Shown here piece after piece: positions 51,322 to 51,631 of a stretch of DNA of 51,886 bases. Source of the stretch: Escherichia phage PhiR12_2. Location: the sequence record PV340550, one strand, 5' to 3'. Made by a program: the position numbers and the translations under genes. The notes under the pieces are model-generated. The model was not told the DNA's origin, made no database searches, and saw only the letters and a list, made by a program, of their open reading frames with translations. Each line of letters begins with the position of its first letter. The stretch's first letter is position 1.

Positions 51322-51570
51322 TTACCGAATAAACCAGTCGTCCGCGGTTTCCCAGACTTCCTTCAGCGTTTCCTGAACGAACTTTTGAGCAGACTCTTTA
51401 TCCACGGATCTTAAAATTGTCAGTCCATCATTGCTGGCAGATTTTACGATCACATCTACATCATCATAACGTTTACTGACACGTCGCAGCATCTCTTGCT
51501 GCAGGGCAGGAACAGAACCGGTTGGCATTTTAGTCATTTTCTCTTTGGCTATGCAGATTTCAATACGCAT
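51322..51570 (-). CDS. dinI: DinI-family DNA-damage-inducible protein
   Basis: 82 aa; MRIEICIAK.., ..LQQEMLRRV.., and C-terminal ..[12 protein letters not shown] match the DinI pattern (MRIEVTIAK..LQETWESADDWF) as recalled; two LexA boxes in its promoter. Confidence 0.75.
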
Positions 51571-51583
51571 AAAAATCCCTCTA

Positions 51584-51631
51584 CACTGTGTTTGTATACA
51601 GTGTTATTTTTAACTGTATGGATAAACAGTA
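51584..51631. promoter_or_regulatory. two tandem LexA (SOS) boxes in the dinI-like promoter
   Basis: cACTGTgtttgtatACAGTg (CTGT 51586-51589, ACAG 51598-51601) and aaCTGTatggataaACAGta (CTGT 51614-51617, ACAG 51626-51629), both fitting CTGT-N8-ACAG; 16-60 nt upstream of the dinI-like start. Confidence 0.65.

Follow-up and report, generated by a model that had tools for sequence, protein, structure and literature searches.

What might a DinI-like gene be doing at the very edge of a prophage, beside the host gene ssrA and behind a promoter that carries two LexA boxes? Such a gene lies in a 51,886-nt stretch of DNA from Escherichia phage PhiR12_2 (record PV340550), the whole of which we analysed and call the window. 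Our answer, which sequence and analogy with known systems make quite probable, is that the locus would be a self-contained SOS-inducible phage cassette, made up of a promoter bearing two LexA operators, the gene for an 82-aa DinI homologue and its terminator, that forms the last gene of a prophage in ssrA and would act by the mechanism proposed below.

The window is a lambdoid prophage that closely matches phage PhiR12_1 (PV340549). Its gene order runs from the integrase (1121-2299) through N, a CI-type repressor and Q to the head and tail genes, the tail-tip gene J and the tail fibres. The repressor (10400-11107, minus strand) has an HTH domain, a Peptidase S24 domain (E=4.4e-16) and a GDSM motif; it found no sequence match in the PDB at E≤0.001. 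Two Ant-type antirepressor genes are present on the plus strand, at 15319-16032 (ORF6N/P22_AR_C domains) and 16101-16829 (KilAC domain), with Rfam matches to isrK (15077-15154) and a C4 antisense RNA (15180-15264) just upstream of them on the same strand. The prophage therefore has both a CI of the cleavable type and antirepressors. An Nmad5 (nucleotide modification associated) protein (7759-8442, minus strand) adjoins the N gene, and the place that rex has in lambda, immediately downstream of the repressor, is taken by a 341-aa ORF (9294-10319, minus strand) for which neither Pfam nor PADLOC gave a match. The Q antiterminator gene is separated by the sRNA STnc100 (143 bits; 18328-18533, plus strand) from a 660-aa ORF whose counterpart by alignment in strain NCTC9112 is annotated as a SASA-family carbohydrate esterase.

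Towards the right end, an IS21-family element (45682-47984, minus strand; istA 46443-47984, istB 45682-46431) sits among the tail-fibre and tail-assembly genes, and in NCTC9112 the same element interrupts a tail assembly gene. It is followed on the plus strand, at 49466-51285, by a gene for a 359-aa protein with a YadA membrane-anchor domain and by two small ORFs (phrog_6585 and phrog_9340). Phage P-EibC has a similar gene order (eibC, orf-156C, orf-60C), and the prophage thus looks like one of the Eib type, which carry an immunoglobulin-binding adhesin.

The last 46 nt of tmRNA are present at the end of the window: Rfam RF00023 matched the 3′ end of ssrA on the minus strand at 51841-51886 (model positions 328-374, 52.7 bits). 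The dinI-like gene is some 270 bp away, which bears out the first-pass annotation, where that gene had been placed at the prophage edge next to ssrA. ARAGORN reported no tmRNA in the window, because ssrA is cut by the window end. In strain NCTC9112, which is 100% identical over the aligned 684/687 bases, a complete 363-nt ssrA is followed by smpB. Within the T-arm region of ssrA lies the attachment core, the 16-mer GCGGGAGTTGAACCCG (51852-51867), which recurs at the very start of the PhiR12_1 prophage record, ~400 bp to the left of the window start; a search of the window itself found no second copy inside it. With GCGGGAGTTGAACCCG at both ends, the phage therefore integrates inside ssrA and supplies the last bases of that gene. 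The proximity of dinI to ssrA is, thus, a by-product of the integration site rather than a functional link, since the attachment core is inside ssrA. Taken together with the gene order, this places the dinI-like gene last, at the attR end of a lambdoid prophage of the Eib type in ssrA.

The stretch between ssrA and the dinI promoter is an attachment-site arm. It holds a palindromic repeat containing CACGTGCATTTTACGTGCAT (51723-51751), which shares k-mers with bases 74-95 of PhiR12_1, so that CACGTGCATTTTACGTGCAT is present on both sides of the attachment core. Because of this copy at the other attachment junction, the CACGTGCATTTTACGTGCAT repeats probably serve as arm-type integrase sites of attP; the prophage integrase has an Arm DNA-binding domain. 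The same stretch contains a terminator-like hairpin followed by seven T residues (51696-51713, minus strand), which was picked up by the terminator scan and by folding. Its stem is weak, with 7 pairs of which 2 are G-U, and we tentatively regard it as a likely phage-supplied stop for ssrA transcription.

The dinI-like coding sequence in the ORF list (51322-51570, minus strand) comprises 82 codons and a stop codon. Judged by its sequence, the product is a full-length DinI homologue, as the first-pass annotation had proposed. Pfam DinI (PF06183) matched it with E=1.2e-16 and 61.2 bits, against a cut-off of 24.2, over profile positions 1-63 of 63; PHROG 189, ‘RecA filament binding protein DinI’, matched with E=9.2e-27; and a sequence search of the PDB returned E. 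coli DinI (1GHH/7YWA, E=5.8e-11) over residues 1-81. Aligned along its whole length, the phage protein shares 39% identity with K-12 DinI, and its identity to Gifsy-1 DinI is 40%. PADLOC gave no match for DinI or its neighbours. Among other E. coli DinI-like proteins, some are 108-112 aa long owing to an internal duplication of ~30 residues, and a copy from an Stx2c phage has a 4-residue VDAL duplication.

The absence of a DinI fold from a structure prediction had been named beforehand as evidence against this assignment. The AlphaFold model of the 82-aa protein is of low confidence (pLDDT 59.7), owing to a shallow alignment, as the homologue search gave only close E. coli relatives. Its secondary structure nevertheless follows the strand-helix-strand-strand-helix order of DinI in 1GHH (strand 2-7, helix 19-34, strands 39-44 and 51-55, helix 59-79), and Foldseek with this low-confidence model placed 1GHH and 7YWA on top of the PDB (TM 0.71-0.74, probability 1.00), far ahead of a third match at only E=0.07. 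The 7YWA structure is that of E. coli DinI on the RecA filament. In a cryo-EM study of DinI on RecA, the contacts were assigned to a hydrophobic pocket (L13, L21, W71, W77 and F78) and an acidic patch (E24, E69 and D76) (PMC9926225). By alignment the equivalents in the phage protein are M15, L23, W73, W79 and F80, and E26, E71 and D78, that is, seven of the eight contact residues are identical to those of E. coli DinI and one is a conservative replacement. The family, the modelled fold and the conserved contacts suggest that the phage protein would bind in the groove of the RecA filament.

Upstream of the gene, a promoter scan predicted only one good sigma-70 match on the coding (minus) strand: the −35 hexamer TTGATA (51630-51635; TTGACA in most relatives) and, after a spacer of 18 nt, the weak −10 hexamer AAAAAT (51606-51611), which almost all relatives share although they differ in the two bases preceding it. 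A Shine-Dalgarno-like AGAGGGA, read from the sequence at 51576-51582 (minus strand), lies 5 nt upstream of the ATG and is kept among relatives as AGAGGGA or AGGAGGG. The candidate LexA boxes, also on the minus strand, are superimposed on this promoter. The distal box TACTGTTTATCCATACAGTT (51612-51631, core 51614-51629) occupies the −35/−10 spacer and overlaps the −35 hexamer by 2 nt; the proximal box CACTGTATACAAACACAGTG (51584-51603, core 51586-51601) lies over the predicted transcription start, with 13 nt between its end and the ATG. Two CTGT-N8-ACAG boxes 12 bp apart had been described in the first-pass annotation, and we found that both are perfect matches, with 28 bp between their centres. 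Of the suggestion that the proximal box overlaps the −10/start region, the part concerning the start stands, but the −10 is not overlapped, as the box begins 2 nt downstream of AAAAAT.

Perfect CTGT-N8-ACAG matches number 6 in the window, against 0.63 expected, and none of 100 shuffles contained as many as 6. A heterology index based on 26 E. coli LexA sites from the literature, 3 of which (that of dinI and two of recN) were confirmed in deposited DNA, was computed for all 20-mers of the window. Among 51,867 positions the distal box ranked first (4.37) and the proximal box second (5.86), on a scale where the 26 known sites span 1.3-9.2 and the third-best 20-mer of the window has 10.04. This third-best 20-mer, TACTGGATCAATCCACAGGA (11855-11874), lies just upstream of an ORF at 12020-12925; being weaker on the index scale than the 26 proven sites, it is probably non-functional. 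We also compared the promoters of 70 loci of the same 82-aa clade that had enough upstream DNA, and both boxes were present in 66 of them, about 41 (±1) and 13 nt from the ATG.

These results leave a vanishingly small probability that the two palindromes are there by chance or serve another role, such as that of a hairpin terminator on the plus strand. Indeed, the terminator scan flagged 51583-51604 on the plus strand as hairpin-like, but no transcription on that strand enters it, and no more than 3 pairs of its stem are G-C; the ‘terminator’ is simply the LexA palindrome. Chance is rejected by the low expected number of sites, by the two top LexA scores of the window and by the fixed positions of the boxes in the relatives. 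Because sequence, geometry and conservation agree, and because there is close precedent, we predict with high confidence that the dinI-like promoter is under the control of LexA, through two operators on a sigma-70 promoter, and is derepressed after DNA damage.

Downstream of the gene the terminator scan found an intrinsic terminator (51281-51310, minus strand), in which a GGGGAGU/ACUCCCC stem beginning 11 nt past the stop codon is followed by a U-tract; its folding energy of −13.6 kcal/mol (z=−4.75) was equalled by 0 of 200 shuffles. A crude script for downstream terminators detected one at only 9 of 98 loci, and we claim the terminator for this window alone. The neighbouring ORFs downstream converge on it. 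With so strong a terminator immediately past the stop codon and convergent ORFs beyond, the dinI-like gene is monocistronic.

How widespread is this arrangement? A 319-bp query comprising the gene and its promoter matched 2014 of 5426 complete E. coli genomes, in up to 8 places per genome, all of the matching E. coli loci being annotated ‘DinI-like family protein’. It also matched 103 phage records, including mEp460, cdtI, BP-4795, CP-1639, P-EibC, YYZ-2008 and many Stx1 and Stx2 phages. The BLAST matches stop at window position 51636 or a few bases away, that is, at the −35 hexamer, and the upstream flanks of the 82-aa-clade loci fall into at least 8 unrelated classes. In every context that we inspected, the dinI-like gene comes after the genes for tail fibres and cargo and points the other way. 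In some contexts no further prophage gene follows, and ~210-280 bp separate it from the attachment repeat, with btsS, prfC or yecD as the neighbour; some Stx phage records end with it, and in dusA-type prophages only the integrase stands between it and the attachment site. In E. coli E2865 and in STEC lineages O26/O103, an ssrA-adjacent dinI that is ~90% identical adjoins the effector genes espK and espN and is annotated as a pseudogene with an internal stop, which suggests that the dinI-like gene is dispensable.

Single boxes are found elsewhere in the family. A Klebsiella member of the 82-aa clade has one, 14 nt from the ATG, and the 77-aa clade of the nin region (Gifsy-1, mEp237 and a Klebsiella phage) has just one box, a strong one, at 18-19 nt. 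Given the two boxes in 66 of 70 loci, the double operator is, thus, a stable trait of the E. coli attachment-end clade. In the papers that we searched we found no description of the two LexA boxes and no functional test of this attachment-end 82-aa clade.

The attachment-end dinI genes of mEp460, cdtI, BP-4795, CP-1639, P-EibC, YYZ-2008 and the Stx1/Stx2 phages are the same cassette. Their products are 66-87% identical to ours, they have the same two-box promoter and the same last position after the tail fibres, and they differ only in the neighbouring attachment site or integrase and in the cargo genes. Annotators have named them DinI, DinI-like or RecA filament binding protein DinI, and the mEp460 record marks the promoter as well. 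Chromosomal DinI of E. coli (b1061; 1GHH, 7YWA) belongs to the same family and has the same fold, a similar length (81 aa against 82) and likewise a LexA-boxed promoter. The phage protein, however, has a 2-residue insertion after strand 1, and instead of the single LexA box of the host gene, 19 nt from the ATG, its promoter has boxes at both 13 and 41 nt. Unlike host dinI, the gene studied here is phage-borne and multi-copy.

The closest experimental precedent comes from the dinI homologues of Gifsy-1, -2 and -3, in which a prophage-encoded DinI is likewise placed under a LexA-controlled promoter. Nalidixic acid induces these genes 23-, 14- and 4.6-fold, respectively, and a single LexA box lies 19 bp from the ATG of each (PMC8072944). 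Control by mitomycin was lost when the region of the Gifsy dinI box was exchanged for the arabinose-inducible PBAD, while non-polar deletions of the Gifsy-1 and Gifsy-3 homologues, the one genetic test that we know of in a related system, did not significantly change induction (PMC3121763). The Gifsy protein, however, is of 77 aa, and its one-box gene lies in the nin region as the first of a dinI-gfoA/gftA-irsA operon, where it is followed by the antirepressor needed for induction; the gene described here is monocistronic and at the attachment end, and the repressor of its prophage is a CI with a cleavage domain, in contrast to the antirepressor arrangement of Gifsy.

LexA control of DinI-type phage genes recurs in other phages. 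A dinI-like gene of PhiKO2, a linear plasmid prophage, is LexA-regulated according to work cited in PMC7556043, and, as here, it runs opposite to the tail-fibre gene. LexA-regulated genes with a DinI domain are also found in coliphage 186 (Tum), PSP3 and Fels-2, but in 186 Tum an antirepressor is fused to the DinI-like half, unlike in the 82-aa protein. Array evidence that links the dinI-like gene c0943 to the SOS regulon was set aside, as c0943 is the P2/186-type DinI of CFT073 and belongs to another clade. More than one operator per promoter, as seen here, is a feature of lexA, recN and the colicin genes; in Salmonella, lexA has 2 LexA operators and recN has 3 (PMC8072944).

We propose the following mechanism. 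In an undamaged lysogen, LexA dimers on the spacer operator and on the start-site operator would shut the sigma-70 promoter, as predicted from its sequence and conservation. Upon DNA damage, RecA filaments would form and LexA would cleave itself, allowing synthesis of a monocistronic dinI mRNA, by analogy with the Gifsy dinI homologues. The phage DinI would then settle in the groove of the RecA filament through a hydrophobic pocket and an acidic patch like those of host DinI, as its conserved contact residues suggest, and from there it may both stabilise the filament and compete with other clients of the groove. The net effect to which we commit ourselves as a guess, and which we regard as the most likely one, would be a mild damping of the RecA-stimulated cleavage of slow substrates, namely UmuD and repressors of the CI type, late in strong SOS. 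Such damping would add to that by host DinI; the prophage's own repressor carries an S24 domain. DinI has, on the other hand, also been credited with stabilising the filament and helping the SOS response (PMC9926225), and the net effect could therefore be the opposite of damping.

Several other accounts of what the gene is for have to be weighed against mild late damping. The first-pass annotation had suggested that the gene could tune the induction of this or co-resident prophages. A stronger version of damping, in line with that idea, is that the phage DinI made during SOS acts as a brake on induction, blocking the RecA groove, raising the threshold for CI cleavage and so timing the induction of its own and co-resident prophages. 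The S24 domain of the repressor and the presence of up to 8 copies of the cassette per genome speak for such a brake, and the same proposal is in print for the DinI gene of Stx2a phages (PMC8456039); yet the Gifsy dinI deletions left induction unchanged, host DinI is already present in the cell, and some copies of the cassette are pseudogenes, so we view the idea as a tentative possibility. The same Gifsy deletions, which had no phenotype, weigh against the reverse idea, namely that moderate amounts of phage DinI made after derepression feed forward by prolonging RecA filaments, sustaining SOS and favouring induction. We think this unlikely, as two operators suggest late and tight expression rather than an early boost, even though DinI does stabilise RecA filaments and reportedly helps them to form (PMC9926225), in line with Lusetti 2004 as far as a citing paper reports it. 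The terminal dinI cassette has also been considered by us as a shared SOS-timing device of E. coli lambdoid prophages, a speculation that we rate as distinctly improbable; if it were true, the double operator would delay expression until deep SOS, and DinI pooled from up to 8 copies would fill the RecA groove and determine in which prophages, those of Stx phages among them, the repressor is cleaved, and when. An equally speculative idea concerns the circle that such prophages form on excision, in which attP would lie between the integrase-side genes and dinI: antiterminated leftward transcripts that cross attP could express dinI independently of LexA and couple its expression to excision.

Alternatively, the gene may have little to do with induction and be cargo that benefits the host or limits mutagenesis, blocking UmuD processing or tempering SOS and thereby protecting replicating phage DNA, or the lysogen under genotoxic stress. 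Work by Yasuda from 1998 and 2001 reportedly found that DinI preferentially inhibits UmuD cleavage, which would fit this account. The gene does lie in the cargo zone after the tail fibres, beside effectors and adhesins; in Citrobacter prophages it has been listed as a fitness cargo gene, and a DinI-like prophage gene is among the groups associated with the emergence of quinolone-resistance mutations (PMC10575684). All of this support is, however, indirect, and we consider the account doubtful. An operon of the Gifsy/186 type, in which LexA controls a small antirepressor co-transcribed with dinI and the antirepressor is the effector, is very unlikely indeed. Its appeal is that the Gifsy dinI homologues are so arranged, that a fused or adjacent form exists in 186, PSP3 and Fels-2, and that a split form exists in CFT073, but the anatomy of the locus rejects it: the terminator 11 nt past the stop codon and the convergent ORFs beyond leave no co-transcribed antirepressor, the 82-aa protein has no extension in which one could be fused, the repressor has an S24 cleavage domain, and the protein, at only 40% identity to Gifsy-1 DinI, is encoded at the attachment end, not in the nin region.

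The dinI cassette is, thus, a real but ordinary phage gene, common and already annotated, and not a new system. LexA control of phage dinI homologues has already been established experimentally for Gifsy, and a limiting effect of phage DinI on induction has been proposed before (PMC8456039). [quoted passage not shown] Over a third of complete E. coli genomes contain the cassette, often in multiple copies, and so do many Shiga-toxin phages. If it is true that it measurably alters RecA-dependent cleavage of repressors, this would bear on the induction of toxin phages by SOS-inducing antibiotics and on competition among co-resident prophages.
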